Positions 2,564-39,404 of a DNA stretch of 64,000 nt are shown piece after piece. The notes beneath the pieces were generated by a model. That model made no database searches. It was not told the origin of the DNA and saw only the letters and a list, made by a program, of their open reading frames with translations. Source of the stretch: Zootoca vivipara (lineage: Eukaryota); the NCBI RefSeq assembly GCF_963506605.1, contig NC_083281.1:24862001-24926000 (forward strand), read 5' to 3'. The stretch's first letter is position 1. Every line of letters starts with the position of its first letter. Made by a program: the position numbers and the translations under genes.

Positions 2564-4384
2564 AGGAGAATGTAACTCTGCTACGTAAAGGAACTTGCTA
2601 GCACAAGTGAGAAAGGATATTAATAAACAATACCTGTATATCCTCTCCTGCCACCCTGAACATTCACACACACAATCCAAGAAATTGTTTACAAAAAGAA
2701 GCAACTATAACAACCCCATTTGGATTTAGTTTTTATCAGAAATCTGCTGTTTGAGCAGAGCTGTGTTCTGGGGGGAGGGGGGACAGGGGAGAGGAAAACT
2801 TGTAAACAGGATGCAATTTCTGCTCCAATATTTTTACCAACCTACCATGGCCTCTCTCACCACCTGGTGTTTTAGAAGGCCTCATCTATCAGTATGAGAC
2901 CATCTCATCCTCTCTGTCCTTACACAGTTACACCACTGCTTGTAAGTGTGGCAAACAGATAATGACAACAAGGCAATGAGCCTCCATTAGTCTGTCATCT
3001 GAAGGAAATGCACCATGCTAAAGTTCTCCTTAACTTTCCACCACGCAGGAATGAGGCACCTCCCAAATAACCCTGAAGGGCTGTTATGAAATGTTCTCCA
3101 AGGAAGCACTCATTACTTTTATACTTTTTTGATTGCCCCTCTGGACAAGGGGCAATCCATCCATCCATCCATCCATCCATATAACTTATAAATAAAACCC
3201 ACCACTGACTCAACAGATTTATGTCATTGCATCCATTCCTGTGCATCTAGAATTAGACTCTTATGCATTCGTCTTCCACACCCATTAAATTTTTTTGTTA
3301 TTATATTATTAAAAATAAGATATATAAAAGTATGGATTCCCCTCGGAAATGCTAAATCCAGAATAAATGGGGAGAAAATGAGGGCTTGCATTTTCATACA
3401 ATGACATTGTGTTGGCCATCCTCCAACCTCTGCTTAAAAACCTCCCATGAAGGAGAGTCTGTCACCTTCTGAGGGAGTCTGTTCCACTGTTGAACAGCTT
3501 TTGCTGTCAAAAAGTTCTTCCTGATTAGTCAGACTCTCTTTTCTTGTAATTAGATCTCCTTTCCTAGCCACTGGATCAGGAGAAGACAAGCATGCATGTG
3601 GAAGCCCTTTAGATATCTGAAGATGGCTATCATATCTCAGAGTCTGAAAGACCCACAGAGATGGGGCATTCTGCCACAGGGAATTTTATTAGCGCCGGCC
3701 ATTTCTGAACTCTTACAGTGAGTCAAAAGATTTCAGATTAAAATTGTCACTGTTGGCACTCAGAGCATGGGACAAGAAATTCCTTGTGTACTGTAGATGC
3801 TTCTCAGATGGCTTTGCAAATGCAGTTGCTACCTGCCTGCCTGGTCTGCAAGGAGAGGGAGTCGGGTGGCAAAAAGCTCCAGCTCCTAAGGCTGCAGGAA
3901 GCTGGAGGAAAAGCTGGGGGAAGGGAAGGCGAGTCTGTCTGGTAGAAACCCTTGAAGGTAGCAGTGCCGTGCCCCCCTGCATGATGTCCCCCTAAAGCTG
4001 AGGTTGTCAGATAAGACACACGCTTTGCTGTCAGTCTGCAGCATGCACACTTCTTCAGAGACACTGAAGCAGAAGTCACCAGACCTTTATATATAGTGAG
4101 GGGGGGGGTATTACTCAGAAGGGAAGTAACAGAATCATAGAATTGTAGAGTTGGAAAGGACCCCAAGGGTCATCTAGTTCAATCCCTTGAAATCAGTGCC
4201 ATGTGGGGCTTAAGTGCAGAAAACGCGGGAGTTGCTGAAACTGGCACAGAGGCAACTACAGCAGAGGAAAAGGATTAACCATCTCTGATGCTTCAAGTTT
4301 CACGAGTGGTCCTTTGGGACCTTCCCAGGACAGGCAGCATCCCGCTTGGAGCTCCCTCTAGCGGGGAATGAGGCTCTCGCTCTT

Positions 4385-4603
4385 CATTGCAATCTTATAT
4401 CGTCTTCGCGCGTACGTTCGCTTTCTTGTTTGCTTTTTGTAGTGCGACGACCCGGAGGGAGAAGGGAATAAAAGCGAGCGAGAGAAAGAGAGTTGGACGA
4501 AGTTGGAGGAAGAAAAGCGTCAGAGACCAGCAAGCAAAGCCTCCGAAGAGGGAACTGAGCTTTACTGCATAAAAATCGGACAGGCAGCAGGAAAGGAGGT
4601 GAG
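4385..4603 (+). promoter_or_regulatory. Candidate promoter and first exon of the copy A 385-aa IRG (degenerate ISRE)
   Basis: Homolog of 33650-33860; the ISRE position reads ACGTTCGCTTTC (4414-4425); donor GTGAG at 4599. Confidence 0.5.
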
Positions 4604-5383
4604 CATTTCTCCTGGTGCTCTGCTGATTTCCGTGTTTTCTGTTTTTTTCTGAGCGTGTTTAAGTTAAAGGAGACTCTGAGCTCATTGCTAGGCAGGGGGC
4701 GGCAGAATCGTTTATTTTCACTCTTATGAATAATGATGTTGGAGAAGGCTGCCCTTGTTCCCCGCTGCAAAGGGAATAAATAACATGAAAGCTCCAGGGA
4801 GCAAGCAGAGCTGGTGCTACCATATAAGAGTTGTAAGTACTGTAACTGCTCTGAAATCAACGCGGGTCTCCCTTTTCAGCGGTGACGCGTGTTCATTCGA
4901 CTTCCCCTTCTGCAGCTGCTACGAGGCTGCCCTCCTGCTTCTCTCGCCTCCTGCCTCTTTCCCTTTTGGGGGTTTGGCAGAGTGGAGGGGGAAGCTCTTT
5001 GGAAGCAGGCAGCGCCTTAGCTAAGTGATCTGGCATCCCTGCCCCCCCCCCTAGCCACGGACAAATGAGCTCTTTCCGTCTCTCCTCCACCCCCCACCCC
5101 CACACGCATTCAATTCCTCACACACGTCACCTTGTAATGAATTCTTTCACAGAAAATCCAGTATTTAATTTATTATTTCTTAATAAAAGGTTTCAGCAGA
5201 GAAAATGACATTTTGATGTGAGTTGACAGGGTTTTTTTTTTAATGTACCGGTAATTCAGTTGTAAAACAATACACAGATTGTTTTAAACGGAACATGCAA
5301 ACAATATCATACTGATTTGTTCCACAATGATAACTTTCCCGTCTCAGAGCCGGAGGTGTTGGAGATCGTATTCTCTCTCTCTC

Positions 5384-6976
5384 CATGGGCGTAGGCAGGG
5401 GGGGCAGGAGGGGGCAGCTGCCCCCCCCTAGAAGCAAAATAATTAATGTATTTTACAGACCATAACCAGCACTTTTCCCCTCCAAAAACTGAAGTGGAAA
5501 AGGCTTTGCTTTAGCAACAGCAGCTAAGTCTCCGCTTGCTGGGGGGGGGGGACACAGCAGTAACAAAAACACATCAAATAAATAAAGCAAAGTGGCTACC
5601 AGTAGTTAAGCAGTTAAGACAATGGAGCATATATCCCCAGGCAAGTTTGATAGCTGACCATTTCACCCTATTGTTCTTAAGTGGGACTTGTTAATGAGCA
5701 TTCAGGAGCATTAAGAGTTCTATTGGTGATTTAATGAGGGTGCAGACTCAGAGGATTCAATTTGACTAAGGTGGCTCTGCAAGGCTAAAAGGAAGTGAAT
5801 AAGAAAGGGGGGGCTGTAACTTTGACAGACACAGTGATGTTTATAAAAAGCATTGGTGTTCCAGTCTGCCCCTCCTCCTGCATCTGTATACTGTAAATCA
5901 GGGGTGGCCACCTCCCAAGAGACTCTGATCTACTCAGAGTTTAAAACTGGGGGTGATCTACCCCCTTTTGGGGGGTTCAGGTCAAAGCTGTTGAGTTTTT
6001 TTTTTAAGGAAGGGAAGCCCTGTTTTTTTGGGTTTAGGTCAAACTTGTTGAGCTTCTTTGAGGAGGGAGGGAGGCCCATTTTTGTTTAGGGCTTCAGGTC
6101 ATAGTTCAACTTTTTTGAGGGAGGAGGAAAATTTTGGGTGAGCTTTTTTTAGGGGTGCCAGTGACCTACCAGTGATCTACCACAGACATCCAGTGATCTA
6201 CTGGTAGATCACAATCTACCTGTTGGACGTGCCTGCTGTAAATCAAGCAGAGAGAAAGCTGCTTACAAGGCTCCTGTACATGCAGAGTTCCAGCATCACA
6301 GTGTCACCCAGAGGCACCCACAAATATGAGTTATCCCTCTCTCTATTTCTTCCTTCCTTCCCTCCCTCTTCCATCCTTAATAAAATACCGGGGGGGGCAG
6401 ATAAGCCCCACATAGAAAGCCCATCAACATGGGGGGATGACTCTTTCAAATACGGTATTTACCAGTAATTTGGGGTGGCACCTAGGCCTCTAGGAGTTGG
6501 ATGCTATGCCTAGGAGTAGGACAATTCAAGAAAGCAGAATGATGCATATGCTATGGTAATATATCAATAGAATCATAGAATTGTAGTCGGAAGGGACCAC
6601 AAGGGTCATCTAGTCCAACCCCCTGCAATGCAGGATTTTTTCCTAAGGTGGGGCTTGAACCATGGTTGAAATATTATGCTGATATGCAGCAACGCCTCGG
6701 AGCCGTCGTGGCTGCGGCCGTGTCTTGCCTCGCCCTCGCCCGCCCTGCCACCCCCTCTCGCCTGCCTGACCCTCCCGTCCTCTCCAGCCAAGCAGGGTAG
6801 CCGCCAACGCTACCAGCCCCAGAAGCACAAGGTGGCCGCTGCTGCCACCGCCACGATGTCATCAGGCCCGTTGGCCCTTTAGCCCCGCCCACTTTGTGGC
6901 CCCTCCCCTTCTGTGCCTTGGCCCCGCCCCTGAACGACCATGGCTTGCCCCCCCCCTAGTTTTGATCCTGGCTACG

Positions 6977-6982
<6 letters not shown>
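5384..6982. mobile_element. Non-autonomous hAT-type element with ~1.4 kb of internal cargo (copy A insertion)
   Basis: Imperfect TIRs CATGGGCGTAGGCAGG / CCTGGCTACGCCCCTG; flanked by TCTCTCTC on both sides (candidate 8-bp TSD). Confidence 0.8.
5899..6235. mobile_element. hAT MITE nested in the cargo element
   Basis: CAGGGGTGGCCA...TTGGACGTGCCTG with 8-bp TSD CTGTAAAT; counterpart at ~35648-35948. Confidence 0.8.

Positions 6983-7047
<65 letters not shown>
6983..7047. repeat. (TC)n(AC)n microsatellite
   Basis: Directly visible. Confidence 0.95.
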
Positions 7048-7048
<1 letters not shown>

Positions 7049-7781
7049 CCCACAACCCACAGCCCACAGCCCTCAGCCCACCTCCCTTGCCCCCCCACTG
7101 GCGATCCCAGATCTCTCCACTGGTGCACACAGCCTTCACTTCCAGGCTGCTCTTCGTCCGCGTACCCAACACACACCTCCAGAGAGAGAGAAACTTCATT
7201 CATTAGCCCCTCCTGCTCATTTCCCGGCTCTTCCCTCATCTTAGATGCCAGGATCAGAAGGAAAAGAGCTCCCATCCCATTCTCTCCCTCACTCCCTCCC
7301 TGAAGGGAAGATGGGGGGGGGGAGAAACGACCCAACTTCGGGGCAACTTTCCATCCGGATCCTGCTCTGGGCTTCACACACACCCTTATTTGTTTCGAAG
7401 GTTTTTGACCCCCTCACTTTCCTCATGCAACTCCCCCCCCCGCCGCCGCCGCCCTTTCCTCTTTCAGCAACACCAACACGAAATCCCAGGTGATTTTCAG
7501 ACAGGAGTGTGAGGAAAAATATCTCACCCCACCCCCCCCAAAAAAAAAAACTTCGGAGGGGGGGGAAGAGAAAATGGGAAAAAATAATAAAGCTTTGCTG
7601 AGGCGTCAAGAGGCGAGGAATTTGTGTCTGGTCCTCCCACAGGTTGGGGAGAAGGACGGGGAGGCTTTCCCCAATCTGAGAAGAGAAACCATTTCGTTGG
7701 AAAGCTGATAATGTGCAGCTTGGGGGAAGTGGGTGGGGAATTTAGGCACATAAGGCATATATGGTTATTAATTACTTAAAT

Positions 7782-8216
7782 CAGTGGTTTCCAACCAATG
7801 TGCTGTGGCACCTGGGGGGCCTTGATCAGGGATGCTGTGGGCAACACTGGCCTCTGTCCCTCTTTCCTCCCCTCCTTCCTCTGATGCCCTCTCGCATCTC
7901 TGCCCCCCAAAGGCTTGTGCAGCTGTTTGTTGCAGCAGCCCTGGCTACAAGCTCCCCAGGCAAATGGTGCCTATGGGGCTGGCGGGGGGACGGGGACTGG
8001 TTTCCAGGAGCTGAAGCAGGGCCTCAGAGTAAGCAAGTGGGCAAGGGAGTCCAGCCAGCCAGACCACCAGCCCTTGCTGTTGGGAATGGACACACAATTC
8101 CCAGGCCCCTGTGGGGCAATGTGAGGAGGAACCTCTCTTGAGGGCAGGGGTGCCACAGAAAGAAGGTACTTGGTCAAAGGAGCTGTGGACTCAAAATGGT
8201 TGAAAACAAACCTCTG
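7782..8216. mobile_element. hAT MITE (paralog at ~38230-38843)
   Basis: CAGTGGTTTCCAACC...GGTTGAAAACAAACCTCTG with 8-bp TSD ACTTAAAT. Confidence 0.75.
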
Positions 8217-8499
8217 ACTTAAATGACAAGCAGGAGCAGAATTTGCATACATTGTCTAAGGTAGGATGCACTCTTAAAGCACACTTAAATAAAACTGCCT
8301 CAACCCCTCCTTCACTTTGACCAGACCCTCCTCTTCTGCACCTTCAGGCTGGTACCTCTTCCTTGCATCTTTCTAAAAACATGGAAGGTTTAATCATCAA
8401 TGTAATGGGCGCAGCTTCCCTCCCCAAACTAAAAAATAAATAAATAAAAAATCAGGAAGTGCAGCTTCTTAAAATGCTGGGAGTCCCCTTCCTCATGTC

Positions 8500-9076
8500 C
8501 CTCTCTATATTCAGGGCTCTTGGACTCTGCTCCTGTTGAGGACTCTGCCCCAGTTGGGGAACCCACAAGGGAAGAAGTCTCAGAGCCAGGGGATTGGTGG
8601 TGGGAGGAAGATGAGTGGTCAGAGGGAGAAGAGAGAGCAGACTGGGAGGAGGAGGAGATGTCAGAAGCTGAAGAGGCAATGGAGTATAGTGAGCAGGAAG
8701 AGTCTGTGGCAGAGAACAGTCCAGAATCAGAGGCAGAAGTGGAAGAGGGATCAAGAGGAAGAGTAGAGGCAGGTTGCTGAAGAAGCCAGGGAATCTCCCC
8801 CTTGTAGTGTTACCAGTTTCCCTCCCCCCTGGTCTCCCAGAACACGAAGAGGGCAGAGCAATGAGAGACAAGACGAAAGAACCTCAGGTTGCTGGGGAAG
8901 AAGGAGTCTTGAGAGCGGGGAAAGGTGGGGACCTTCAGTCCTCACAAGTGCTTCATTGGGGCAAGAGATCCTGGGAAGAGTTGCTGTGTTCACGCGGCCT
9001 GTTTGGTTTTCTTTGAGTAAAGAGTTAACTTCACTGACAACAGGTGTTTCATTGCTCACAGACTCCAGCTCCTGAC
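8500..9076 (+). mobile_element. Probable solo-LTR-type repeat with GAG/GAA-rich core (related pieces at ~20533-20880, ~30232-30400, ~43181-43518)
   Basis: Recurrent GA-rich repeat; related copies begin TGTCA and this one ends ...CCTGAC. Gives spurious acidic ORFs. Confidence 0.45.
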
Positions 9077-9084
9077 GTCCCATG

Positions 9085-10532
9085 CAGGGCCGGTGCTAGG
9101 GTTTTTTGTGCCCTAGGAGAGATCACCTTCTGGTGCCCCCTCCCCCATTTCCCAGAGTTGTTGACATTTGTTAAGAAAAAATAAAAGTGGAATAAAATAA
9201 ATAAATAATAAAAATAGAAAAAAAATAAAAAGAGAGTTCCTTGGTTGTTGGTGAGGGGAAGGGGTAAAAAGCAGTCTCTTTACCTTGTCAGCTAGCGGCC
9301 TTCCCTGTTTCTGACACGGCCTTCCCCTGCTACCTCTGGAGTCCGATCTCGGCATGCTAGCTGCTGGAGGGGTGGGCCCGACTCGAGCGAAAGAGCAGAG
9401 AGGGCGCCTCCAGGGCTGTCCCTAGGCCCGGGCTGGGTGGCGCAAGGCGCCAGGGCGCCTGGCCATCAGGGGCGCAGAAACTGCACTGAACTCAGCGGAG
9501 GCAGCCCCAGGCTCCCGCTCCCCGCACGAAGCTCTGTAGGCGCGCGTGGGGAGCGCGAGCCTCTGGAGCTTCGCGCAGGGAGCGGGAGCCTGGGGCCGCC
9601 TCCGCTGAACAGCTGAGAGGTGCGGCGAGGTGTGTGGGATGCAAAGGGTTAAGTGCAGTCAAGTCACAACAATCCCTAGATAGTCCACTTGGAGGACTGA
9701 GGAGGAGGACATGACTAAGCCTAATTTCCTCTTCCTTCACATGCTAATTAGATGCGAAAGGCGATAGATAAATTCTGGAGGAAACAGCCATTTCCCTTTC
9801 TTGGACCAGACCTCTTGGACTACACACATCTTAGTGAGTCTCTCTCTCAAGGCCTCCAACCTAGAGAGAGAGATGAGATGGAGTCTCACTTCTTATAAGT
9901 GAACTTCACAATGTATATATTACCTTTTAACTAAGCAAGTCTACCTCTTGAGTGTGCTGTACCTCGAGATGCTTGTAAGTAAACATTTTTTATACTTTTA
10001 AGAGCATTGTGTTGTGTCTTTTCTTTTAAGAGGGATAAAGGGGAAAATACCAGGAAAATACACTTTATTTTAGTGGCTTAAATCAAGCCAGCGCAAACGT
10101 TTTTCTGCTGTGTATTTTGAAAAAAGGGAAAGTTTTTACTCTGCTAAAGTTTGGTGCTTGCTAGCGCAAGCGGGGATAGGATATATTAAACAATATCTCC
10201 TCATCCACATTCCTGAACATTCCCACAAGGTGGCCCCAGGCTCGCGCCTCCAGAACTTTGCGCCAAAATGGAGGGGGTGCCGGCCAGCCTGCCTGCCGCC
10301 CGCTGCCGCCACCCCTCGGTGCTGCCTGGGGCCACCTCCACTGTGCCTCTCAGCTGTTGAGTGGCTTCAGGCCGCTCTCTGGAAGCCACTCAACAGCTGA
10401 GAGGCGCAATGGAGGCGGCCCCAGGCAGCACCGGGGGGGTGGCAGCGGGGGGCGGGCAGGCTGGCCAGTGCCCCCTCCATTTTGGCGCCCTAGGCAGCTG
10501 CCTCGTTCGCCTTAATGGACGCGCCAGCCCTG
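9085..10532. mobile_element. hAT MITE containing a solo LTR
   Basis: TIRs CAGGGCCGGTGC / GCGCCAGCCCTG; 8-bp TSD GTCCCATG (9077-9084, 10533-10540). Confidence 0.85.
9633..10227 (+). mobile_element. Solo LTR
   Basis: TGTGGGA...TCCCACA termini; 5-bp TSD AGGTG; same family as 48677-49218 and 28160-28239. Confidence 0.85.
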
Positions 10533-10763
10533 GTCCCATGACCTTTGGGCACTTTATCCTTGTGCTCACTTCTGAATTACGGAATCTGATGGGATTCATA
10601 CCTTCTACCTATAAAGCTTTGGTGCTTGGCAAATGATAATATTGCAGACGCTGGAAATTTTACAGAGGGCATGCCACTCTCGTTAAATAAATGAATGCCT
10701 CTAGTTAGGCTGGTCGCTTAACATATTCCTGCTTCCTTTCTCTGCAGTGCACCGAGATCCACA

Positions 10764-11921
10764 ATGATGGAAGACTTTGAGGTAGCCATTTCTCAGGGCC
10801 AATTGGCAGATGCTGTGTCGCACGTGCTGGCAAAACCACTGCACTTTTTCAACAGCACTCCACTCAACGTTGCCGTAGTAGGAGAGCCCGGCTCCGGGAA
10901 GTCCTCCTTCATCAATGCCATGTTGGGTCTTCATGCTGATGACCCTCGTGCTGCTGAGACCGGCATACAGATGTCAACATTGCAAGTCAAGGATTACCCA
11001 AACCCGACACTTCCGCAAGTGATCCTTTGGGACCACCCCGGAAAGGGAACACCAACTTTTGGGAAGGACAAATTTGAGAAGAAGGTTGATTTAAATCACT
11101 TTGATTTCTTCGTCATCGTCGGCTCCCAACGCTTCCGCTCCACCCATTCTGACCTGGTCCATGAGATCCAAGATATGGCCAAGAATTTCTACTTTGTGCG
11201 CACCAAAGCAGACCTGGACCTGTCGGCCGCCAAGAGGCAACAGCCATCCAGCTACAATGAAGAGAAGGTCCTCTTGCACATCCAGGAGGACTGCAAAGAG
11301 TGCTTGGTAAGAGAAGGAGTGAGGGACCCACAAGTCTTCATCGTCTCCAACTGGGAAGCCGACCGCTTTGATTTCCCCCTCCTGCAGGAAACGCTGAAGA
11401 ACGATCTCTTGCGGCTGAAGAGGCAAGCCTTTCTGCACCGCTTCCCTAGCATCTGTCTGCCTATCTTAGAGAAAAAGAAAGCCTCTGTGAAGGAGAAGAT
11501 TTGGACCAGCAGGCTTTGTTTGCTGGTCGCTATTGGAAGCCCAGTTCCTTTCCTTCTTCCCATATTTCTGTTTAATAAGTTCCACTCCTGGTGCTTCCTA
11601 GACTTTGGCCTGAACGATCGATCCCTTGCAGCTCTGGCCCAGCGTGTTGGAAAGACAAGCACAGCCCTTAAAGCAGCAATGCAGTCCCTGGGAATGTTCT
11701 CTGCCATTTTATGGGTGCTGCCGGACTTGGTGGGACTCTCAGTGATGGCTTATGAATATCACCGCTGGGAGCATTTCCCCATCTTTGGCTGCCTTCTGTC
11801 CGGAGGGATTTCACTTCTTCGCACCTACTTCATGCTGCAGAAATGCATATCGGGTGCTGCGGATGACACCCAGAGGGTTCTGTCCAAAGCTCTTGAGGCA
11901 GAAGGGAAAAAGTCCATTTAG
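10764..11921 (+). CDS. Divergent immunity-related GTPase (IRG/IIGP family, GKS type), 385 aa, copy A
   Basis: Single long ORF with G1 GEPGSGKSS, G3-like WDHPG, DFFVIVGSQRF, G4 FVRTKAD and G5-like VSNW. A polypyrimidine tract and AG acceptor (ends 10747) lie just before the ATG, as in the single-coding-exon IRG architecture. AATAAA at 12526. Confidence 0.92.
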   Translation: MMEDFEVAISQGQLADAVSHVLAKPLHFFNSTPLNVAVVGEPGSGKSSFINAMLGLHADDPRAAETGIQMSTLQVKDYPNPTLPQVILWDHPGKGTPTFGKDKFEKKVDLNHFDFFVIVGSQRFRSTHSDLVHEIQDMAKNFYFVRTKADLDLSAAKRQQPSSYNEEKVLLHIQEDCKECLVREGVRDPQVFIVSNWEADRFDFPLLQETLKNDLLRLKRQAFLHRFPSICLPILEKKKASVKEKIWTSRLCLLVAIGSPVPFLLPIFLFNKFHSWCFLDFGLNDRSLAALAQRVGKTSTALKAAMQSLGMFSAILWVLPDLVGLSVMAYEYHRWEHFPIFGCLLSGGISLLRTYFMLQKCISGAADDTQRVLSKALEAEGKKSI

Positions 11922-14826: not shown

Positions 14827-17800
14827 TTATATTCTCTGCAGCCAAAGATGGAGAAGCTCTATACGGTCAGCAAACACAAGACCTGGAGCTGACTGTAACT
14901 CAGATCATCAGCTTCTTATAGCAAAATTCCAGTTTAAACTGAAGAAAGTAGGAAAAAACACTGGGCCAGTAAGATACAATCTAAATCAAATCCCTTATGA
15001 ATACACAGTGTAAGTGAGGAACAGGTTTAAGGATTTAGATTTGGTGGACAGAATGCCTGAAGAACTATGGATGGAGGCTCGTAACATTATACAGGAGGCA
15101 GCAACGAAAACCATCCCAAGGAAAAAGAAATGCAAGAAAGCAAAATGGCTGTCCAACGAGGCCTTACAAATAGCGGAGGAGAGGAGGCAAGCAAAATGCA
15201 AGGGAAATAGGGAAAGATACAGATTTCCAAAAAATAGCAAGGATAGACAAGAGGGTCTTCTTAAATGAGCAATGCAAAGAAATAGAGGAAAACGATAGAA
15301 TGGGGAAAACCAGAGATCTGTTCAAGAAAATTGGAGATATGAAAGGAAGATTTCGTACAAAGATTACCATAATAAAGGACAAAAGTGGTAAGGACCTAAC
15401 AGAAGCAGAAGACATAAAGAAGAGGTGGCAAGAATACACAGAGGAATTATACCAGAAAGATATGGAGGTCTCGTACACCCCAGGTAGTGTGGTTGTTGAC
15501 CTTGAGCCAGACATCTTGGAGAGTGAAGTCAAATGGGCCTTAGAAAGCACTGCTAATAACAAGGCCAGTGGAAGTGATGATATTCCAGCTGAACTATTTA
15601 AAATTTTAAAAGACGATGCTGTTAAGGTGCTACACCCAATATGTCAGCAAGTTTGGAAAACTCAGCAATGGCCAGAGGATTGGAGAAGATCAGTCTACAT
15701 CCCAATCCCAAAGAAGGGCAGTGCCAAAGAATGCTCCAGCTACCGCACAATTGCGCTGATTTCACACGCTAGCAAGGTTATGCTTAAAATTCTACAAGGC
15801 AGGCTTAGGCAGTAAGTGGACCGAGAACTCCCAGAAGTGCAAGCTGGATTTCGAAAGGGCAGAGGAACCAGAGACCAAATAGCAAACATGCGCTGGATTA
15901 TGGAGAAAGCTAGAGAGTTCCAGAAAAACGTCTACTTCTGCTTCATTGACTATGCAAAAGCCTTTGACTATGTCGACCACAGCAAACTATGGCAAGTTCT
16001 TAAAGAAATGGGAGTGCCTGATCACCTCATCTGTCTCCTGAGAAATCTCTATGTGGGACAAGAAGCTACAGTTAGAACTGGATATGGAACAACTGATTGG
16101 TTCAAAATTGGGAAAGGAGTACGACAAGGTTGTATATTGTCTCCCTGCTTATTTAACTTATATGCAGAATTCATCATGCGAAAGGCTGGACTAGATGAAT
16201 CCCAAGCCGGAATTAAGATTGCCGGAAGAAATATCAACAACCTCAGATATGCAGATGACACAATCTTGATGGCAGAAAGCGAGGAGGAATTAAAGAACCT
16301 TTTAATGAGGGTGAAAGCGGAGAGCGCAAAATATGGTCTGAAGCTCAACATCAAAAAAACCAAGATCATGGCCACTGGTCCCATCACCTCCTGGCAAATA
16401 GAAGGGGAAGAAATGGAGGCAGTGAGAGATTTTACTTTCTTGGGCTCCTTGATCACTGCAGATGGTGACAGCAGTCACGGAATTAAAAGACGCCTGCTTC
16501 TTGGGAGAAAAGCAATGACAAACCTAGACAGCATCTTAAAAAGCAGAGACATCACCTTGCCGACAAAGGTCCGTATAGTTAAAGCTATGGTTTTCCCAGT
16601 AGTGATGTATGGAAGTGAGAGCTGGACCATAAAGAAGGCTGATCGCCGAAGAATTGATGCTTTTGAATTATGGTGCTGGAGGAGACTCTTGAGAGTCCCA
16701 TGGACTGCTAGAAGATCAAACCTATCCATTCTTAAGGAAATCAGCCCTGAGTGCTCACTGGAAGGACTGATCTTGAAGCTAAGGCTCCAATACTTTGGCC
16801 ACCTCATGAGAAGAGAAGAATCCTTGGAAAAGACCCCGATGTTGGGAAAGATTGAGGGCACAAGGAGAAGGGGACGACAGAGGACAAGATGGTTGGACAG
16901 TGTTCTCGAAGCTACGAACATGAGTTTGACCAAACTGCGGGAGGCAGTGGAAGACAGGAGTGCCTGGCATGCTATGGTCCATGGGGTCACGAAGAGTCGG
17001 ACACGACTAAACGACTAAACAACAACAACACACGCTAGCAAGGTTATGCTTAAAATTCTACAAGGCAGGCTTAGGCAGTATGTGGACCGAGAACTCCCAG
17101 AAGTGCAAGCTGGATTTCGAAGGGGCAGAGGAACCAGAGACCAAATAGCAAACATGCGCTGGATTATGGAGAAAGCTAGAGAGTTCCAGAAAAACGTCTA
17201 CTTCTGCTTCATTGACTATGCAAAAGCCTTTGACTGTGTCGACCACAGCAAACTATGGCAAGTTCTTAAAGAAATGGGAGTGCCTGATCACCTCATCTGT
17301 CTCCTGAGAAATCTCTATGTGGGACAAGAAGCTACAGTTAGAACTGGATATGGAACAACTGATTGGTTCAAAATTGGGAAAGGAGTACGACAAGGTTGTA
17401 TATTGTCTCCCTGCTTATTTAACTTATATGCAGAATTCATCATGCGAAAGGCTGGACTAGATGAATCCCAAGCCGGAATTAAGAATGCCGGAAAAAATAT
17501 CAACAACCTCAGATATGCAGATGACACAACCTTGATGGCAGAAAGTGAGGAGGAATTAAAGAACCTTTTAATGAGGGTGAAAGAGGAGAGCGCAAAATAT
17601 GGTCTGAAGCTCAACATCAAAAAAACCAAGATCATGGCCACTGGTCCCATCACCTCCTGGCAAATAGAAGGGGAAGAAATGGAGGCAGTGAGAGATTTTA
17701 CATTCTTCGGCTCCTTGATCACTGCAGATGGTGACAGCAGTCACAAAATTAAAAGGTGCCTGCTTCTTGGGAGAAAAGCAATGACAAAGCTAGACAGCAT

Positions 17801-19560
17801 CTTAAAAAGCAGAGACATCACCTTGCCTACAAAGGTCCGTATAGTTAAAGCTATGGTTTTCCCAGTAGTGATGTATGGAAGTGAGAGCTGGACCATAAAG
17901 AAGGCTGATCGCCGAAGAATTGATGCTTTTGAATTATGGTGCTGGAGGAGACTCTTGAGAGTCCCATGGACTGCAAGAAGATCAAACCTATCCATTCTTA
18001 AGGAAATCAGCCCTGAGTGCTCACTGGAAGGACTGATCTTGAAGCTAAGGCTCCAATACTTTGGCCACCTCATGAGAAGAGAAGAATCCTTGGAAAAGAC
18101 CCCGATGTTGGGAAAGATTGAGGGCACAAGGAGAAGGGGACGACAGAGGACAAGATGGTTGGACAGTGTTCTCGAAGCTACGAACATGAGTTTGACCAAA
18201 CTGCGGGAGGCAGTGGAAGACAGGAGTGCCTGGCATGCTATGGTCCATGGGGTCACGAAGAGTCGGACACGACTAAACGACTAAACAACAACAACACACG
18301 CTAGCAAGGTTATGCTTAAAATTCTACAAGGCAGGCTTAGGCAGTATGTGGACCGAGAACTCCCAGAAGTGCAAGCTGGATTTCGAAGGGGCAGAGGAAC
18401 CAGAGACCAAATAGCAAACATGCGCTGGATTATGGAGAAAGCTAGAGAGTTCCAGAAAAACGTCTACTTCTGCTTCATTGACTATGCAAAAGCCTTTGAC
18501 TGTGTCGACCACAGCAAACTATGGCAAGTTCTTAAAGAAATGGGAGTGCCTGATCACCTCATCTGTCTCCTGAGAAATCTCTATGTGGGACAAGAAGCTA
18601 CAGTTAGAACTGGATATGGAACAACTGATTGGTTCAAAATTGGGAAAGGAGTACGACAAGGTTGTATATTGTCTCCCTGCTTATTTAACTTATATGCAGA
18701 ATTCATCATGCGAAAGGCTGGACTAGATGAATCCCAAGCCGGAATTAAGAATGCCGGAAAAAATATCAACAACCTCAGATATGCAGATGACACAACCTTG
18801 ATGGCAGAAAGTGAGGAGGAATTAAAGAACCTTTTAATGAGGGTGAAAGAGGAGAGCGCAAAATATGGTCTGAAGCTCAACATCAAAAAAACCAAGATCA
18901 TGGCCACTGGTCCCATCACCTCCTGGCAAATAGAAGGGGAAGAAATGGAGGCAGTGAGAGATTTTACATTCTTCGGCTCCTTGATCACTGCAGATGGTGA
19001 CAGCAGTCACAAAATTAAAAGGTGCCTGCTTCTTGGGAGAAAAGCAATGACAAAGCTAGACAGCATCTTAAAAAGCAGAGACATCACCTTGCCTACAAAG
19101 GTCCGTATAGTTAAAGCTATAGTTTTCCCAGTAGTGTTGTATGGAAGTGAGAGTTGGACCATAAAGAAGGCTGATCGCCGAAGAATTGATGCTTTTGAAT
19201 TATGGTGCTGGAGGAGACTCTTGAGAGTCCCATGGACTGCAAGAAAATCAAACCTATCCATTCTTAAGGAAATCAGCCCTGAGTGCTCCCTGGAAGGACA
19301 GATCGTGAAGCTGAGGCTCCAATACTTTGGCCACCTCATGAGAAGAGAAGAATCCTTGGGAAAGACCCTGATGTTGGGAAAGATTGAGGGCACTAGGAGA
19401 AGGGGACGACAGAGGATGAGATGGTTGGACAGTGTTCTCGAAGTTACGAACATGAGTTTGACCAAACTGCGGGAGGCAGTGCAAGACAGGAGTGCCTGGC
19501 GTGCTATGGTCCATGGGGTCACGAAGAGTCGGACACGACTAAACAACTAAACAACAACAA
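14827..19560 (+). mobile_element. 5'-truncated BovB (RTE clade) LINE with its last ~1266 bp in three tandem units
   Basis: RT motifs (FIDYAKAFD, QGCILSP, YADD) in ORFs 15816-17018, 17046-18284 and 18312-19550; endonuclease tail at the 5' end; (CAA)n tails. 10-bp TSD AGCATTTCAT at 14817-14826 and 19561-19570; empty site in copy B near 42297. Confidence 0.95.
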
Positions 19561-22194: not shown

Positions 22195-23445
22195 CTAGGG
22201 CTCTGGTTCTAGGGCTTTCTTTAGAACCCTTTCAGCATCCTCAGCTAGATTACTGACAAACCTCGACAGCATCAAATAAATGATAGAAAAAGATGCTGCT
22301 ACCAATCTTCCAACTAAAGATAGGAATAATTCTTTTGCAGTATTGATATATTGCAGTATTTTCTTTATCACGAAATCGATGGTAATTTCTTCCATCTGAG
22401 GAGACTTCATCACAGCCTTCAGTTCTTCAACAGGCTTCCTGGCCAATCTGGCCAGCCTAGTTAAGGAGTCACCATCCAACTCAAATATCTTGTAGAAGTC
22501 AACCATGGACCTTTGCAAGAGGGAAGCATCACAAGCCAGAGGATGGTCACAAGCCAGAGGATTGTCTGGAATGGAAGAAGCATTGATGCAAGCAGACACC
22601 AGGGATATTTTCCATATGTGGCTCTTCAGCACAGATTTCTTCTTTTCCGTGACTTCAGGGGAAAACATGGGAAGGCTGAGCAGGAATGCATGTTTCTTCA
22701 GACTGTGCAGATCTTTCTCCAACGTCTCCACCAGTCGTGGGAAGTCATACTTGGCAAGGTCCCAGGAGGAGATCAGAAAGACTTGAGGGATGGTGCTCCT
22801 GAAGCACTTCTTAAGCTGCTTCTTTAAGTCATTCCTCATCTTCTCAAGGACTTCCTCTTCATTGAAGGTATTTGGGTAAGACCTTTCCATGTTGTATAGA
22901 TCTGCATCTACTTTGGTGCGCACAAAATAACACTTCTTCTCCATCTTCTGGATTGCCTGAGCTAGGCCAGTGTCGTTGGATCGGAATCTCTCTGAGCCAA
23001 CAATGATAAAGAAGTCATAGCTGGGGAAATCCACCATCTTAAGGTAACTCTCTGGGGAGAAATCTGGGGATCCAATTCCTGGCAGGTCCCAGAATTTCAC
23101 TTTGGGATAATTAGAATGGGTATAAACCTTTGGATTCAGTGTAGTTTCTGTCACTCCTACAGGGGCAGCACCATCATCTTCTGCCTTCAGGCCTCGGAGA
23201 GCATTGATGAGGGATGATTTCCCAGAGCCTGTCTCTCCAGTGATGGCAATGTTAAGCTCAGTGTTTTCCATCTCCTCCATCTCATCTTTGATCTCAGAAG
23301 CTGCTTCCTTCATTCCACAATCACTGAAAACCTCCATAAACCTCTCATATATATTGATTGCTATATCTATGTTCATGTCTGTATTTTTCAATATAGGCTG
23401 GATAATCTCAGGCAACAATGAAAGTTTTTCTGCAAATGAATTCAT
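22195..23445 (-). CDS. IRG GTPase (interferon-inducible GTPase 5-like), 416 aa, copy A
   Basis: G1 GETGSGKSS, switch I GVTETT, G3 WDLPGIG, G4 RTKVD, G5 ISSW. Acceptor CTTTTTTCTTCTAG immediately precedes G-ATG on the minus strand. Confidence 0.93.
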   Translation of the reverse strand: MNSFAEKLSLLPEIIQPILKNTDMNIDIAINIYERFMEVFSDCGMKEAASEIKDEMEEMENTELNIAITGETGSGKSSLINALRGLKAEDDGAAPVGVTETTLNPKVYTHSNYPKVKFWDLPGIGSPDFSPESYLKMVDFPSYDFFIIVGSERFRSNDTGLAQAIQKMEKKCYFVRTKVDADLYNMERSYPNTFNEEEVLEKMRNDLKKQLKKCFRSTIPQVFLISSWDLAKYDFPRLVETLEKDLHSLKKHAFLLSLPMFSPEVTEKKKSVLKSHIWKISLVSACINASSIPDNPLACDHPLACDASLLQRSMVDFYKIFELDGDSLTRLARLARKPVEELKAVMKSPQMEEITIDFVIKKILQYINTAKELFLSLVGRLVAASFSIIYLMLSRFVSNLAEDAERVLKKALEPEP

Positions 23446-32712: not shown

Positions 32713-33649
32713 TGAAGGATATGAGGAGCACTGTGTGCATCATGTTTTCTCCCCACCCAAGTGAATGTCTTGCACACCTTCCCAGCTGGGAGCAACTTTC
32801 CAGAGCAGATTTTAGAGGAGATGTGGGGGAGATGAGTAGAAAAGAGGTCAGGGAATTCTGCCCCTTTAATATTTGGGTAGAAGGGGGAATGTCAGCAAGT
32901 ACCGGTATTTCCTTCAGGGTAAGGCAAAATCTCCTGAGAAGTGGGCAAATTTATTATTTTCAGTTTCTCTCAATTTCTCATTTTTCCAATATTTAAGTTC
33001 AGCTCTTCACATCTCCCCATCTGTTGGCTATTTCCTTTTTTTAAAAGTTCCCATGAAAATTCATCAGGACTATTATTTTCCTCAAAAGGCGGTGTACAAA
33101 ATGCAATGGACACAGCTAAAACGAGATCATGAGCTGCAATCGTCCATGCTATGAAGAAATCATGGTGGAACATTGTGTATTTCGCAGGATTTACCTCCTG
33201 CTTAATTGCAATAAAACCTCAAAGCAGTTGAGACGGGCGATAGAACCCTTCCTGCTTCTTTGCGGGCTCTAAAAGATTTCGTGCCTCCCTGAAATTTCTA
33301 CCGTCCTTTGCAAAGACTCCAATATACACTGCAGTACGTACGTAGTAGGAGAGCTGGACTCTGGGAAGTCACAAGATCATAGAATTGTAGAGTTGGAAAG
33401 GACCTCAAGGGTCATCTAGTTCAACCCCTTGAAATCAGTGCCATGTGGGGCTTAAGTGCGGAAAACTCGGGAGTTACTGAGACTGACACAGAGACAACTA
33501 CCGCAGAGGTAAAGGATTAACCATCTCTGATGCTTCAAGTTTCACGAGTGATCCTTTGGGACCTTCCCAGGAAAGGCAGCATCCCTGCTGTCAATCAGGC
33601 TGCTTGGAGCTCCCTCTAGCGGGGAATGAGGCTCTCGCTCTTCGTTACA

Positions 33650-33860
33650 ATCTTATATCGTCTTCGCGCGTACTTTCACTTTCTTCTTTGCTTTTTGTAG
33701 TGCGACGACCCGGAGGGAGAGGGAATAAAAGCGAGCGAGAGAAAGAGAGTTGTACGAAGTTGGAGGAAGAAAAATGTCAGAGACCAGCAAGCAAAGCCTC
33801 CGAAGAGGGAACTGAGCTTTACTGCATAAAAATCGGACAGGCAGCAGGAAAGGAGGTGAG
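33650..33860 (+). promoter_or_regulatory. Candidate promoter and non-coding first exon of the copy B 385-aa IRG
   Basis: Perfect IRF-E/ISRE ACTTTCACTTTC at 33672-33683, CpG-enriched, ending in the donor GAG|GTGAG. Homologous module at 4385-4603 and inverted at 25090-25295. Confidence 0.55.
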
Positions 33861-34304
33861 CATTTCTCCTGGTGCTCTGCTGATTTCCGCGTTTTCTGCT
33901 TTTTTCTGAGTGTGTTTGAGTTAAAGGAGACTCTGAGCTCATTGCTAGGGAGGGGGCGGCAGAATCGTTTATTTTCACTCTTATGAATAATGATGTTGGA
34001 GAAGGCTGCCCTTCTTCCCCGCTGCAAAGGGAATAAATAACATGAAAGCTCCAGGGAGCAAGCAGAGCTGGTGCTAGCATATAAAAGTTGTAAGTACTGT
34101 AAGTGCTCTGAAATCAACGCGGGTCTCCCTTTCCAGCGGTGACGCGTGTTCATTCGACATCCCTTTCTGCAGCTGCTACGAGGCTGCCGCCCTCCTGCTT
34201 CTCTCGCCTCCTGCCTCTTTCCCTTTTGGGGGTTTGGCAGAGTGGAGGGGGAAGCTCTTTGGAAGCAGGCAGAGCCTTACGGTAGCTAAGTGATCTGTTG
34301 CCCC

Positions 34305-34394
34305 CATAGCTGCCAAGTTTTCCCTTTTCTCGCGAGGAAGCCTATTCAGCATAAGGGAAAATCCCTGTAAAAAAGGGATAACTTGGCAGCTATG
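34305..34394. mobile_element. Small MITE with CATAGCTGCCAAG TIRs
   Basis: Perfect TIRs; near-TSD GTTGCCCC/GTCGCCCC; same TIR family as 54253-54504. Confidence 0.8.
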
Positions 34395-35025
34395 GTCGCC
34401 CCTGGCAGAACCGTCCAGATTGCGCCCCCTAGCCACGGACAAATGAGCTCTTCTTTCCGTCTCTCCTCCACCCCCCACACGCATTCAATTCCTCACACAC
34501 GTCACCTTGTAATGAATTCTTTCACAGAAAATCCAGTATTTAATTTATTTTTTCTTAATAAAAGGTTTCAGCAGAGAAAATGACATTTTGATGTGAGTTG
34601 ACAGGTGTGGGTTTTTTTAAAAAATGTACCGGAAATTCAGTTGTTAAACAATACACAGATTGTTTTAAATGGAACATACAAACAATATCATACAGATTTT
34701 TTCCACAATGATAACTTTCTGGTCTCAGAGCCGGAGATGTTGGAGATGTATTCATTCTCTCTCTCTGTCACACACCCACACACCCACACAGCCCATCGCC
34801 CACCTCCCTTGCCCCGCCCCACAGGCGATCCCAGATCTCTCCACTGGTGCACACAGCCTTCACTTCCAGGCTGCTCTTCGTCCGCGTACCCAACACACAC
34901 CTCCAGAGAGAGAGAAACTTCATTCATTAGCCCCTCCTGCTCATTTCCCGGCTCTTCCCTCACCTTAGATGCCAGGATCAGAAGGAAAAGAGCTCCCATC
35001 CCATTCTCTCCATCCCTCCCTGAAA

Positions 35026-37753
35026 CAGGCGCGTACCCAGGATGAAAACTGGGGGGGGGGCAAGGCAAGCCATGGTCGTTCAGGGGTGAGGGGGTGCCAG
35101 GATCAGCCCAAAATCGGGCTACTCCTCCCATGGGCGTAGGCAGGGGGGCAGGAGGGGGCAGCTGCCCCCCCCTAGAAGCAAAAAAATTAATGTATTTTAC
35201 AGACCATAACCAGCACTTTTCCCCTCCAAAAACTGAAGTGGAAAGGGCTTTGCTTTAGCAAGAGCAGCTAAGTCTCTGCTTGCTGGTGGGGGTGGGGACA
35301 CAGCAGTAACAAAAACACATCAAAGAAATAAAGCAAAGTGGCTACCAGTAGTTAAGCAGTTAAGACAATGGAGCATATATCCCCAGGCAAGATTCGATAG
35401 CTGACCATTTCACCCTATTGTTCTTAAGTGGGAGTTGTTAATGAGCATTCAGGAGCATTAAGAGTTCTATTGGCGATTTAATGAGGGTGCAGACTCAGAG
35501 GATTCAATTTGACTAAGGTGGCTCTGCAAGGCTAAAAAGAAGTGAATAAGAAAGGGGGGAGGCTGGAACTTTGATAGACACAGTGATGTTTATAAAAAGC
35601 ATTGGTGTTCCAGTCTGCCCCTCCTCCTGCATCTGTATACTGTAAATCAGGGGTGACCATCTCCCAAGAGACTCTGATCTACTCAGAGTTTAAAACTGGG
35701 GATGATCTACCCCCTTTTGGGGGGTTCAGGTCAAAGCTGTTGAGTTTTTTTTAAAGGAAGAGAAGCTTCTTTTAGGAGGGAGGGAGGCCCATTTTTGTTT
35801 AGGGCTTCAGGTCATAGTTCAACTTTTTTTAGGGAGGAGGAAAATTTTGGGTGAACTTTTTTTAGGGGTGCCAGTGACCTACCAGTGATCTACCACAGAC
35901 ATCCAGTGATCTACTGGTAGATCACAATCTACCTGTTGGACGTGCCTGTTGTAAATCAAGCAGAGAGAAAGCTGCTTACAAGGCTCCTGTACATGCAGAG
36001 TTCCAGCGTCACCCAGAGGCACCCACAAATATGAGTTATCCCTCTCTCTATTTCTTCCTTCCTTCCCTCCCTCTTCCATCCTTAATAAAATACGGGGGGC
36101 AGATAAGCCCCACATAGAAAGCCCATCAACATGGGGGGATGACTCTTTCAAATATGGTATTTACCAGTAATTGGGGGGGGGGGGGAGAGAGGCACCTAGG
36201 CCTCTAGGAGTTGGCTGCTATGCCTAGGAGTAGGACAATTCAAGAAAGCAGAACGATGCATATGGTATGGTAATATATCAATAGAATCGTAGAATTGTAG
36301 TCGGAAGGGACCACAAGGGTCATCTAGTCCAACCCGCTGCAATGCAGGATTTTTTCCTAAGGTGGGGCTTGAACCATGGTTGAAATATTATGCTGATATG
36401 CAGCAACGGCTCAGAGCCGTCGTGGCTGCGGCCATGCCTTGCCCCGCCCTCGCCCGCCCTTCCACCCCCTCTCGCCTGCCCGACCCTCCTGTCCTCTTGC
36501 TGCAGAGTTCCAGCATCACAGCGTCATCCAGAGACACCCACAAATATGAGTTATCTCTCTCTCTATTTCTTCCTTCCTTCCCTCCCTCTTCCATCCTTAA
36601 TAAAATACGGGGGGCAGATAAGCCCCACATAGAAAGCCCATCAACATGGGGGGATGACTCTTTCAAATACGGTATTCACCAGTAATTGGGGGGGGGCACC
36701 TAGGCCTCTAGGAGTGGGATGCTATTCCTAGGAGTAGGACAATTCAAGAAAGCAGAATGATGCATATGCTATGGTAATATATCAATAGAATCATAGAATT
36801 GTAGTCGGAAGGGACCACAAGGGTCATCTAGTCCAACCCCCTGCAATGCAGGTTTTTTTCCTAAGGTGGGGCTTGAACCATCGTTGAAATATTATGCTGA
36901 TATGCAGCAACGCCTCGGAGCCGTCGTGGCTGCGTCCGTGTCTTGCCTCGCCCGCCCTGCCACCCCCTCTCGCCTGCCCGACCCTCCCGTCCTCTCCAGC
37001 CAAGCAGGGTAGCCGCCAACGCTACCAGCCCCAGAAGCACAACGTGGCCGCTGCTGCCGCCACCACAATATCATCAGGCCCGCTGGCCCTTTAGCCCCGC
37101 CCACTTCGTGGCCCCTCCCCTTCCATGCCTTGGCCCCACCCCCGAACGACCATGGCTTGCCCCCCCTAGTTTTGATCCTGGCTACGCCCCTGACTCCTCC
37201 TCCTCCACGACCGGCAGGTGCGAGGGGGCGCCAGGATCACCCCGAAATCGGGCTGCTCCGACCCCCTCCTCCCCCTCCGCAATCGGCAGGGGCGAAGGGG
37301 CGCCAGGATCAGCCCCAAATCGGGCTGTTCCGATCCCCTCCTCCCCCTCCGCGATCGCCGGGACGGGTGGAGGGAAAGCCAGCCAAGCGTTTGGCTGGCT
37401 TTCCCTCCACCCGCCCCACAGCCAGCAAGGGAGAAGGGAGACGTCCCTTCTAGCCAGCTGGCTGTGGGGCAGGTGGAGGGAAAGCCCCAGAGCCTAGCAA
37501 AGCATTTGGCTGGCTTTCCCTCCACCTGCCCCACAGCCAGCGAGAAGGGAGACGTCCTCTAGCCAGCTGGCTGTGGGGCGGGTGGAGGGAAAGCCAGCCA
37601 AACGCTTTGCGCGGCTCTGGGGCTTTCCCTCCACCCGCCCCACAGCCAGCCAGGGAGAAGGGAGACGGCATTGGGGGGGGGGCCGGGCAGCGGGGCAGGC
37701 TGGCCAGTGGCCCTGCTTCTAGGGGGGGCAACTGCCCCCTGCCTACGCCCATG
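35026..37753. mobile_element. Nested hAT elements: outer GC-rich MITE containing the cargo element (35129-37192) in opposite orientation
   Basis: Outer TSD CCCTGAAA/CCCTGAAT (empty site at ~7298 in copy A); inner perfect TSD ACTCCTCC (35121-35128, 37193-37200). Confidence 0.85.
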
Positions 37754-39404
37754 CCCTGAATGGAAGATGGTGGGGAGGGGGGGGAGAGAAACGACCCAAC
37801 TTCGGGGCAACTTTCCATCCGGATCCTGCTCTGCGCTTCACACACACACACACCCTATTTGTTTCGAAAGATTTTTACCCCCTCACTTTCCTCATGCAAC
37901 TCCCCCCCTTTCCTCTCTCAGCAACACAAAATCCCAGGTGATTTCCAGACAGGAGTGTGAAGAAAAATCTTTTACCCCAAAAAGACTTTTTTGGGGGGGG
38001 AGAGAGAGAGAGAGAGAGAGAATGGAAAAAATAATAAAGCTTTGCTGAGGGGTCAAGAGGCGAGGAATTTGTGTCTGGTCAGGTTGGGGAGAAGGACGGG
38101 GGAGGCTGTCCCCAATAAGAGAAGAGAAACCATTTTGTTGGAAAGCTGATAATGTGCAGCTTGGGGGAGGGGGGAAGTGGGTGGGGAATTTAGGCACATA
38201 AGGCATATCTGGTTATTAATTACTTAAATCAGTGGTTTTCAACCAATGTGCCATGGCACCTGGGGTGGCTTGAATGATGGTCAGAGGTGCCATGGGAAAC
38301 ACTGGCCTCTGTCCCTCTTTCCTTCACTCCTTCCTTAGATGCCCTCTCGCATCTCTGGCCCCCAAAGGCTTTTGCAGCTGTTTGTTGCAGCAGCCCTGGC
38401 TATAAGCTCCCCAGGCAAATGGTGCCTCTGGGGCTGGCGGGGGGACGGGACTGGTTTCCAGGAGCTGAAGCAGGGCCTCAGAGTAAGCAAATGGGCAAGG
38501 GAGTCCAGCCAGCCAGACCACCAGCCCTTGCTGTTGGGAATGGACACACAATTCCCAGGCCCCTGTGGGGCAATGTGAGGAGGAACCTCTCTTGAGGGCA
38601 GGGGGGGTGGCAGCTCAGAGACCAGGGGAGGGAGCAGTGGCTGCCCAGAGGACTCTCAATGAGAGGGGAGAAGAGAGGAGGCTGAGGGAATACTTCACAT
38701 GGGGGTGAAAAAGGGTGAGAGGCTGCCAGCTCTGCAGGCAAGGGGTGACATAACTGGGCTCCTGAGCCCCACAGGGGTGCTGCAGAAAGAAGGTACTTGG
38801 TCAAAGGAGCTGTGGACTCAAAAAGGTTGAAAACAAACCTCTGACTTAAATGACCAGCAGGAGCAGAATTTACATACATTCTTAAAGCACACTTAAATAA
38901 AACTGCCTCAACCCCTCCTTCTCTTTGACCAGACCCTCCTCTTCTGCACCTTCAGGCTGGGGTCGCCTCCACTGCGCCTCTCAGCTGTTGAGCGGCTTCA
39001 GGCCGCTCTCCGGCCGCTCTTCGGAAGCCACTCAACAGCTGAGAGGCACAGTGGAGGTGGCCCCAGGCAGCACCGGGGGGTGGTGGGCGGTGGGCAGGCT
39101 GGCCAGCGCCCCCTCCATTTTGGCGCCCTAGGCAGCTGCCTCGTTCGCCTTAATGGGCGTGCCGGCCCTGGTCCCATGACCTTTGGGCACTTTAGCCTTG
39201 CACTCACTTCTGAATTACAGAATCTGATGGGATTCATACCTTCTACCTATAAAGCATTGTTGCTTGGCAAATGATAACAATATTGCCGATGCTGGAAATT
39301 TTACAGAGGGCATGCCACTCTCGTTAAATAAATGAATGCTTCTAGTTAGGCCGGTCGCTTAACATTTTCCTGCTTCCTTTTTCTGCAGTGCACCGAGATC
39401 CACA

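Follow-up and report, generated by a model that had tools for sequence, protein, structure and literature searches.

A reptile IRG lineage without the switch I glutamate, a candidate nucleotide-binding partner of canonical IRGs

The 64,000-nt stretch of Zootoca vivipara DNA analysed here, referred to as the window, contains five IRG-type ORFs, two of which encode a 385-aa IRG that reads methionine in place of the switch I glutamate and retains a P-loop of the GKS type. In mouse Irga6 this glutamate, Glu106, is essential for activated GTP hydrolysis, as the first-pass annotation of this DNA had stated: no mutant of this residue activates it, E106D, E106Q, E106A and E106N included, and these four still oligomerise (PMC3042988). 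What, then, is an IRG without this residue for? We find that the 385-type gene is an IRG of an old reptile lineage that is neither a canonical effector nor, judged by the features that define them, one of the GMS proteins, and the reading that we favour, by analogy with mouse systems and at a probability of roughly 0.5, is that of a partner of canonical IRGs that is associated with membranes and binds nucleotide but is deficient in its hydrolysis. We found no account of this lineage in the literature searched for reptile IRGs and pseudo-GTPase IRGs, subscription journals lying outside the coverage of that search.

Active-site residues and predicted fold

Copy A occupies 10764-11921 on the plus strand as a single coding exon (Pfam IIGP, PF05049, E 4e-76), and copy B, 97% identical to it, 39405-40562 on the same strand; both are open over their 385 aa, as annotated at first pass. 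The 385-aa protein scores 257 bits against the PF05049 profile, for which the curated cut-off is 24. Convergent to copy A lies a canonical 416-aa IRG (GKS, VGVTETT, DLPG; 22195-23445, minus strand), a candidate partner. The neighbour of copy B is of the same 416-aa type, with a premature stop and WNLPG at G3 (46253-47287, minus strand), and a canonical 412-aa IRG (GKS, TGVVETT, DLPGIG) is found at 62002-63240 on the plus strand. Switch I reads TGIQMST in copy A and TGIQMTT in copy B, against VGVTETT in the 416-aa and 344-aa ORFs and TGVVETT in the 412-aa ORF, letter for letter as first noted.

Along copy A, all on the plus strand, follow the G1 P-loop GEPGSGKSS, which contains the Glu77 equivalent (10881-10907); switch I, with equivalents of Thr102 and Thr108 (10959-10979) and Met70, codon ATG, at the position of Glu106 (10971-10973); the G3 motif DHPGKG, its DxxG intact and Lys at the position of Ile130 (11031-11048); RFRSTH, in which Arg159 is retained and His stands at Asp164 (11130-11147); and the G4 motif TKAD with the guanine-specificity residue Asp186 (11202-11213). 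The register comes from a phmmer alignment to Irga6 (1tq6; query 20-294 against 56-333), in which the numbering of the two proteins differs by 36 throughout a gap-free G domain, so that Met70 corresponds to Glu106, Gln69 to Val105, Asp90 to Asp126, His91 to Leu127, Lys94 to Ile130 and His128 to Asp164; the published mouse IRG alignment gives the identical register. Rules established for Irga6 are here transferred across about 35-40% identity. By this comparison copy A keeps G1, Thr102, Gly103, Thr108, DxxG, Arg159 and the TKAD of G4, and lacks the first 36 residues of Irga6 together with the myristoylation motif, a shortening also seen in several other reptile and fish IRGs. The sequence and the fold are matched best by Irga6, Irgb6 and Irgb10 (E 4e-60 to 1e-49), and the 385-aa protein differs from these GKS effectors in the absence of Glu106, Asp164 and the N-terminal features, and in an uncharged αF-αG tip.

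An AF2 model of the 385-aa protein has a pLDDT of 82, and its nearest solved folds are IRGs throughout (top Foldseek and VIA rows, Z 19-23; Foldseek E 1e-19). The whole-model rmsd to IRG structures is about 19-21 Å, which makes the domain packing of the model unreliable, and confidence is lower at the switch regions, with a pLDDT of 71 over residues 61-70 and under 50 over residues 97-106. Because of this low confidence and the deviating packing, we rely on the ungapped sequence alignment for the register; the AlphaFold model cannot settle the active site.

The αF-αG tip of copy A contains 21 residues without D, E, K or R around a central Pro (11514-11576, plus strand), a candidate membrane-inserting hairpin. 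This stretch matches the region of the membrane-facing helices of Irgb6, the membrane-targeting residues of which are placed in αF and αK (PMC6925386). The tip is without acidic residues in 44 of 49 lineage rows compared with 5 of 193 other rows, and its hydropathy peak exceeds 2.0 in 43 of 48 compared with 13 of 190; an uncharged tip of 19-20 residues is also found in many non-mammalian IRGs, at least 20 residues long in 50 of 193 rows, and non-mammalian IRGs outside the lineage are likewise fairly hydrophobic at this point.

An old lineage with several catalytic lesions

Relatives were collected with two kinds of query, the protein itself and a 28-row alignment. Among the matches listed, the closest named ones are Podarcis proteins (85-91% identity), and the remainder come from geckos, a skink, a girdled lizard, a tegu, a worm lizard, an anguid and iguanians, from snakes, from pleurodire and cryptodire turtles and, via cluster names, from two alligators. 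Turtles and lizards other than lacertids have full-length open relatives at 48-73% identity, alligators have them too, and most species of the lineage are represented by one or two clusters. They form one branch with 100/99 support in a careful LG+G4 tree (22 of 49 chosen rows), with an SH-aLRT of 99 in a quick tree (43 of 88 rows), and with a FastTree support of 1.0 (51 of 254 units, or 56 of 349 once the crocodilian-cluster row is added). Squamates parted from turtles and crocodilians about 280 million years ago. Among the matches listed, in lists of 105, 120 and 150 rows with mostly unnamed representatives, we recognised no member from birds, mammals, amphibians or tuatara. A rodent query returned no GMS protein among the best 120 of 871 matches, and the proteins listed by these searches together included no IRGM sequence.

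Two sequences from these searches carry a GMS-type P-loop of their own. Tuatara P0123 (UniRef A0A8D0LB73) reads GEPGSGMSS, lacks the switch I Glu and DxxG, and groups with canonical turtle IRGs, sister to the 385-aa lineage (99/96); the first unit of Gekko kuhli P0263 reads GESCSGMSS. Such non-mammalian Lys-to-Met P-loops are possibly convergent, each being a single predicted sequence in which errors may occur.

A displaced acidic residue, considered at first pass as a substitute for the missing glutamate, is not found: within six positions after Thr102 an acidic residue occurs in 0 of 31 lizard rows (a set that includes three of the six copies of this genome and some close paralogues), compared with 187 of the 203 rows that fall outside the lineage, and the absence of Glu is thus neither chance nor a register slip. 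Lizards have M, T, A or S at position 106. Here Asp stands in 14 and Glu in one (Pelodiscus) of the 15 turtle rows, all 15 of which lack Thr108, while both alligator rows read TGLVGGQ and WELPG, that is, Gly at 106, Gln for Thr108 and Glu for Asp126. In snakes the canonical switch I and WDLPG are absent from 5/5 rows, and a DADG stands about ten residues further on where the alignment is uncertain; the snake members have also lost Arg159, their ORF is open, and G1 and G4 are retained. Across the lineage the G1 Lys is present in 50 of 51 rows, with Met in none, and Asp186 of G4 in 51 of 51. Four branches carrying four different lesions around a near-fixed G1 and G4 point to released catalysis with a retained nucleotide site, and on these alignments the lineage protein has probably been selected to hold nucleotide and fold and not to hydrolyse.

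Conservation of the altered motifs, which the first-pass annotation had proposed to check in orthologs, holds for the loss of Glu, seen in squamates, turtles and alligators, and fails for Met and DHPG themselves, both of which vary. DHPGKG had been read correctly, with the qualification that the DxxG consensus is unbroken, Asp126 and Gly129 being retained in 31 of 31 lizard rows, and His127 is confined to seven lacertid rows and 14 further lacertid cluster members; DHPG was accordingly dropped as a hallmark of the class. Outside the lineage Glu106 is found in 186 of 203 rows, a set rich in rodents, and in 131 of 179 further IRG units (50%-identity representatives), and its absence from the other 48 shows recurrent and widespread loss of this residue among IRGs. 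The suggestion that this class stands apart by changing switch I instead of G1 therefore does not survive: besides these 48 units, GMS proteins alter both motifs, and mouse Irgb2, Irgb5 and Irgb9 combine GKS with His at 106.

Copies, transcription and selection

A search of the genome gave 36 IRG matches among 46 candidates, 35 of them on contig C6. Six are 385-type copies, all six open, and each is followed after 7-12 kb by a convergent 416-type gene. Three of these six neighbours are broken (L013 by a premature stop, L016 and L017 by absence of the first 81 residues), so a fixed 385/416 pairing is not required. A unit of about 51.7 kb is repeated at 24.70-24.83 Mb of C6 and contains identical or near-identical genes (L004/L005, L016/L017, L024-L026), which represents either very recent duplication or over-expansion of the assembly. 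Other IRG units of this genome also lack Glu106 or have an altered G3, namely L015, L019, L022 (WNLPS), L028 and L030 (WELAL; it forms the first half of a tandem that resembles P0042-P0044). At 15300-19560 on the plus strand, in the interval that separates copy A from its neighbour, stand three head-to-tail 1266-bp copies, 97-99% alike and with long open frames, which we take to be the 3' reverse-transcriptase part of an RTE/BovB-like LINE. A 305-aa ORF at 54867-55784 (minus strand) is hydrophobic at its N-terminus and apparently contains an internal repeat; it gave no match in a Pfam search and no usable match in an Atlas search.

RNA joints place a non-coding exon 1 of copy A at 4467-4598 (plus strand, 5' limit provisional), spliced over a GT..AG intron to 10748, and that of copy B at 33724-33855 (plus strand), spliced to 39389. 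The joint 4598 to 10748 is crossed by raw reads of runs X21 (2) and X22 (7) and by contigs of X1 and X5, and the joint 33855 to 39389 by two reads of X21, eight of X22 and none of X23; the reads at the two copies are largely identical and not independent. Exon 1 carries an in-frame stop ahead of Met1, which makes Met1 the start in the spliced form found and rules out an N-terminal coding exon for that form; the annotation of Podarcis raffonei includes longer isoforms. A single long 3' coding exon behind an untranslated exon, the structure shared with Irga6, Irgb6 and Irgb10, is a trait of the IRG family (PMC1297648).

Coding-region depth, based on about 6% of each RNA run, is low and strand-correct, at about 4 in X21 and 9-29 in X23, and patchy in X22. 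The minus-strand 416-type neighbour is covered at a depth of 11-23 in X23, a run in which both types have strand-correct reads; the type of the truncated copy B neighbour (46253-47287) also has such reads in X23, possibly from other copies. At six diagnostic coding sites the reads match the letters of L002-L005 and not those of copy A, the sampled animals being different from the assembled one. Upstream of exon 1 of copy B, at 33672-33683 on the plus strand, the candidate site ACTTTCACTTTC resembles what we take to be an IRF element, of putative function; its counterpart ACGTTCGCTTTC in copy A (4414-4425, plus strand) is degenerate, and the form ACTTTC[A/G]CTTTC is present in the other five copies, that is, in 5/6 promoters. 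Spliced transcription is demonstrated for B-type copies, and copy A, with its degenerate promoter site and with reads matching other copies, may be weakly expressed.

Exon 1 of copy A is directly preceded by a decayed IRG G-domain piece, switch I to G3 (4200-4345, plus strand), with a corresponding piece at about 33440-33600 (plus strand) before exon 1 of copy B. It best matches the 385-aa lineage (tblastn E to 7e-15; DNA alignment; L031-L042) and extends from G1 to G3 in L040-L042. The promoter block has 25 matches in the IRG array, near several IRG types, and from this distribution it seems that one promoter with its exon 1, which formed next to a dead IRG copy, has spread across the cluster. 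Birth of the IRF-like site from decayed IRG codons is unsupported, as the site lies beyond the alignable part.

Codon maximum likelihood on the five distinct 385-type copies (L005 omitted as identical to L004; tree length 0.17) gives an ω of 0.53 with κ 5.0, and a likelihood-ratio test against ω of 1 gives 2dL 5.69 and p 0.017 with κ on a grid, an estimate that comes from close paralogues of one genome, without population data and with gene conversion possible. The corresponding ω is 0.96 for three intact 416-type copies and 0.93 for four 418-type copies, and neither value differs from 1. NG86 yields pairwise values of 0.14-0.59, pooled 0.39 (p 0.0008); we prefer the likelihood value because NG86 ignores transition bias. 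The 385-type copies are under moderate purifying selection.

Proposed role and alternatives

With G1 and G4 kept and the switch I Glu absent, the 385-aa protein is predicted to bind guanine nucleotide without activated hydrolysis, the loss of the latter being deduced from Irga6 mutagenesis. By analogy it would contact canonical IRGs through the G-domain interface (Glu77, Thr102, Gly103, Thr108 and Arg159, kept in most lizards), would reside on membranes through its uncharged αF-αG tip, and could in this way control where neighbouring canonical IRGs assemble. Its effect on them may be a restraining one of the GMS type: GMS proteins are described as membrane-bound and proposed to be GDIs (PMC2532785). 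Hydrolysis-dead Irga6-K82A is GTP-locked and dominant negative (PMC2532785). His164 and the slower evolution of the 385-type slightly favour such a brake over an activator, and His at 164 is deleterious for GTP-dependent assembly in Irga6 (PMC3042988). The opposite sign is conceivable because the mechanism proposed for Irga6 has Glu106 working in cis and the ribose 3'OH of the partner in trans (PMC3042988), such that a GTP-loaded 385-aa protein could supply its 3'OH and activate a canonical IRG. A GMS-like brake is the simplest form of the model; with its sign reversed, the model becomes that of a trans-activating scaffold.

The tip, His164, slower evolution and position in the array all fit a membrane-resident partner of canonical IRGs. 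His164 (45 of 51 lineage rows) and the tip are nonetheless weak GMS-like traits, because both also occur in other IRGs, His164 in 33 of the 203 rows outside the lineage, one of which is the canonical 412-aa neighbour. Arg159, retained in 42 of 51 lineage rows, and the GKS of G1 speak against the partner reading, as GMS proteins differ in both. Mouse Irgm1, Irgm2 and Irgm3 resemble the lineage in lacking Glu106, in His164 and in a proposed non-effector role at membranes. However, of the triad carried by GMS proteins, E106R, R159Q and D164H (PMC3042988), the lineage shares His164 alone, its position 106 being M, T, A, S, D or G and not Arg, and the regulatory activity of GMS/IRGM proteins would extend to it by analogy. 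One account discusses IRGM for mammals only (PMC2644816).

Precedents exist for a non-catalytic IRG regulator or decoy and for GKS without Glu106. Among 17 aligned mouse GKS proteins, 13 have Glu at 106, Irga2 has Asp, and Irgb2, Irgb5 and Irgb9 have His (PMC3042988). The last three, N-terminal units of tandems, share with the lineage a GKS P-loop and a replaced switch I Glu (TGVVHTT), and differ in their separate origin, a row of their type falling in the mammalian branch, in their expression as tandems, and in an N-myristoylation motif. Quasi-IRGs (IRGQ, zebrafish irgq1-3) combine an IRG fold with an altered nucleotide site; they are polyphyletic and non-catalytic, and are proposed to form regulatory heterodimers and to co-evolve with active IRGs (PMC1297648). 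Their radical motif change (Bekpen 2005) is present in the snake members, which fit this description, and absent in lizards and turtles, where G1, DxxG and G4 are kept and the defect is limited to the catalytic residue.

An IRG-independent, non-catalytic scaffold in the manner of IRGQ or IRGC, with a role in trafficking, autophagy or a particular tissue, is unlikely, though the snake members, which keep ORF, G1 and G4 despite losing most of the IRG-IRG interface, are in its favour. So are the slower evolution relative to neighbouring IRG types and the reads in three RNA runs, and IRGC, which is constitutive, and IRGQ, which lacks GTPase motifs, are precedents (PMC1297648). What tells against it is that the gene sits in the IRG array and duplicates with it, that the IRF-element-like site of 5/6 copies belongs to a promoter block common to other IRG types, and that the interface residues Glu77, Thr102 and Gly103 are present in 31 of 31 lizard rows.

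Less likely again is an active GTPase that has been re-wired in lizards, with Gln105 positioning the water and Lys or Arg at 130 stabilising the transition state in place of Glu106. Position 130, next after DxxG, is the one that we take to correspond to Gln61 in Ras, and both residues, which could be catalytic, are conserved in lizards (Gln105 in 27 of 31 rows, Lys/Arg130 in 29 of 31) and rare outside the lineage, in a setting where Thr102 (31/31), Thr108 (28/31) and DxxG (31/31) are kept. But Gln105 gives way to H, S or G in four lizard rows, Gly131 is replaced by Glu in 13 gecko rows, turtles and alligators have neither residue and show lesions of their own, and snakes have lost the site entirely; Gln at 106 itself gives no rescue in Irga6 (PMC3042988).

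We regard as improbable a decoy for parasite effectors, the other half of the first-pass proposal, modelled on mouse Irgb2-b1, which shields Irga6 from phosphorylation by a parasite kinase complex (PMC3810784). The Irgb2 unit has the same motif state, GKS with His106 (PMC3810784, PMC3042988), and the retained switch I threonines and the growth to six copies would suit this function. Irgb2-b1 is, however, highly polymorphic and under divergent selection (PMC3810784), whereas the 385-type, with an ω of 0.53 in a small sample of five paralogues, evolves most slowly of the three types compared, and over a long span most species have kept it as one or two clusters; the decoy branch is thus weakly disfavoured. 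Decay of functionless duplicates, for which the recent tandem array with identical L004 and L005, three broken neighbours, and the degenerate promoter site and unmatched diagnostic sites of copy A might argue, is largely refuted for the lineage, and highly improbable overall, by full-length open relatives in other lizards, turtles and alligators, ω below 1 and spliced RNA, in line with the first-pass expectation, and is possible for copy A alone.

For the partner of canonical IRGs that we favour, a stronger form can be put forward tentatively: a dedicated regulator of non-avian reptile IRGs, independent of mammalian IRGM, which would have lost Glu, kept the P-loop Lys, acquired an endomembrane hairpin and come to gate effectors. 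Such a regulator would date back at least to the time when squamates parted from turtles and crocodilians, and snakes would represent its end state as a full pseudo-GTPase. Mouse IRG effectors need GMS regulators to spare the cell's own membranes, and GMS proteins are described from mammals only in the literature examined; for the large IRG arrays of reptiles, with 36 matches in this genome, the lineage is a concrete candidate for the source of restraint. Its series of lesions, from Asp in turtles through Met, Thr, Ala or Ser with Lys/Arg130 in lizards and Gly in alligators to loss of G3 in snakes, separates binding from catalysis and allows the Irga6 model of Glu106 in cis and partner 3'OH in trans to be tested cleanly. 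The lineage merits testing for its age, for the gradation of its lesions and because reptile IRG arrays have no regulator described so far; if the proposal is true, an architecture of regulator and effector would be a repeated requirement of IRG systems.
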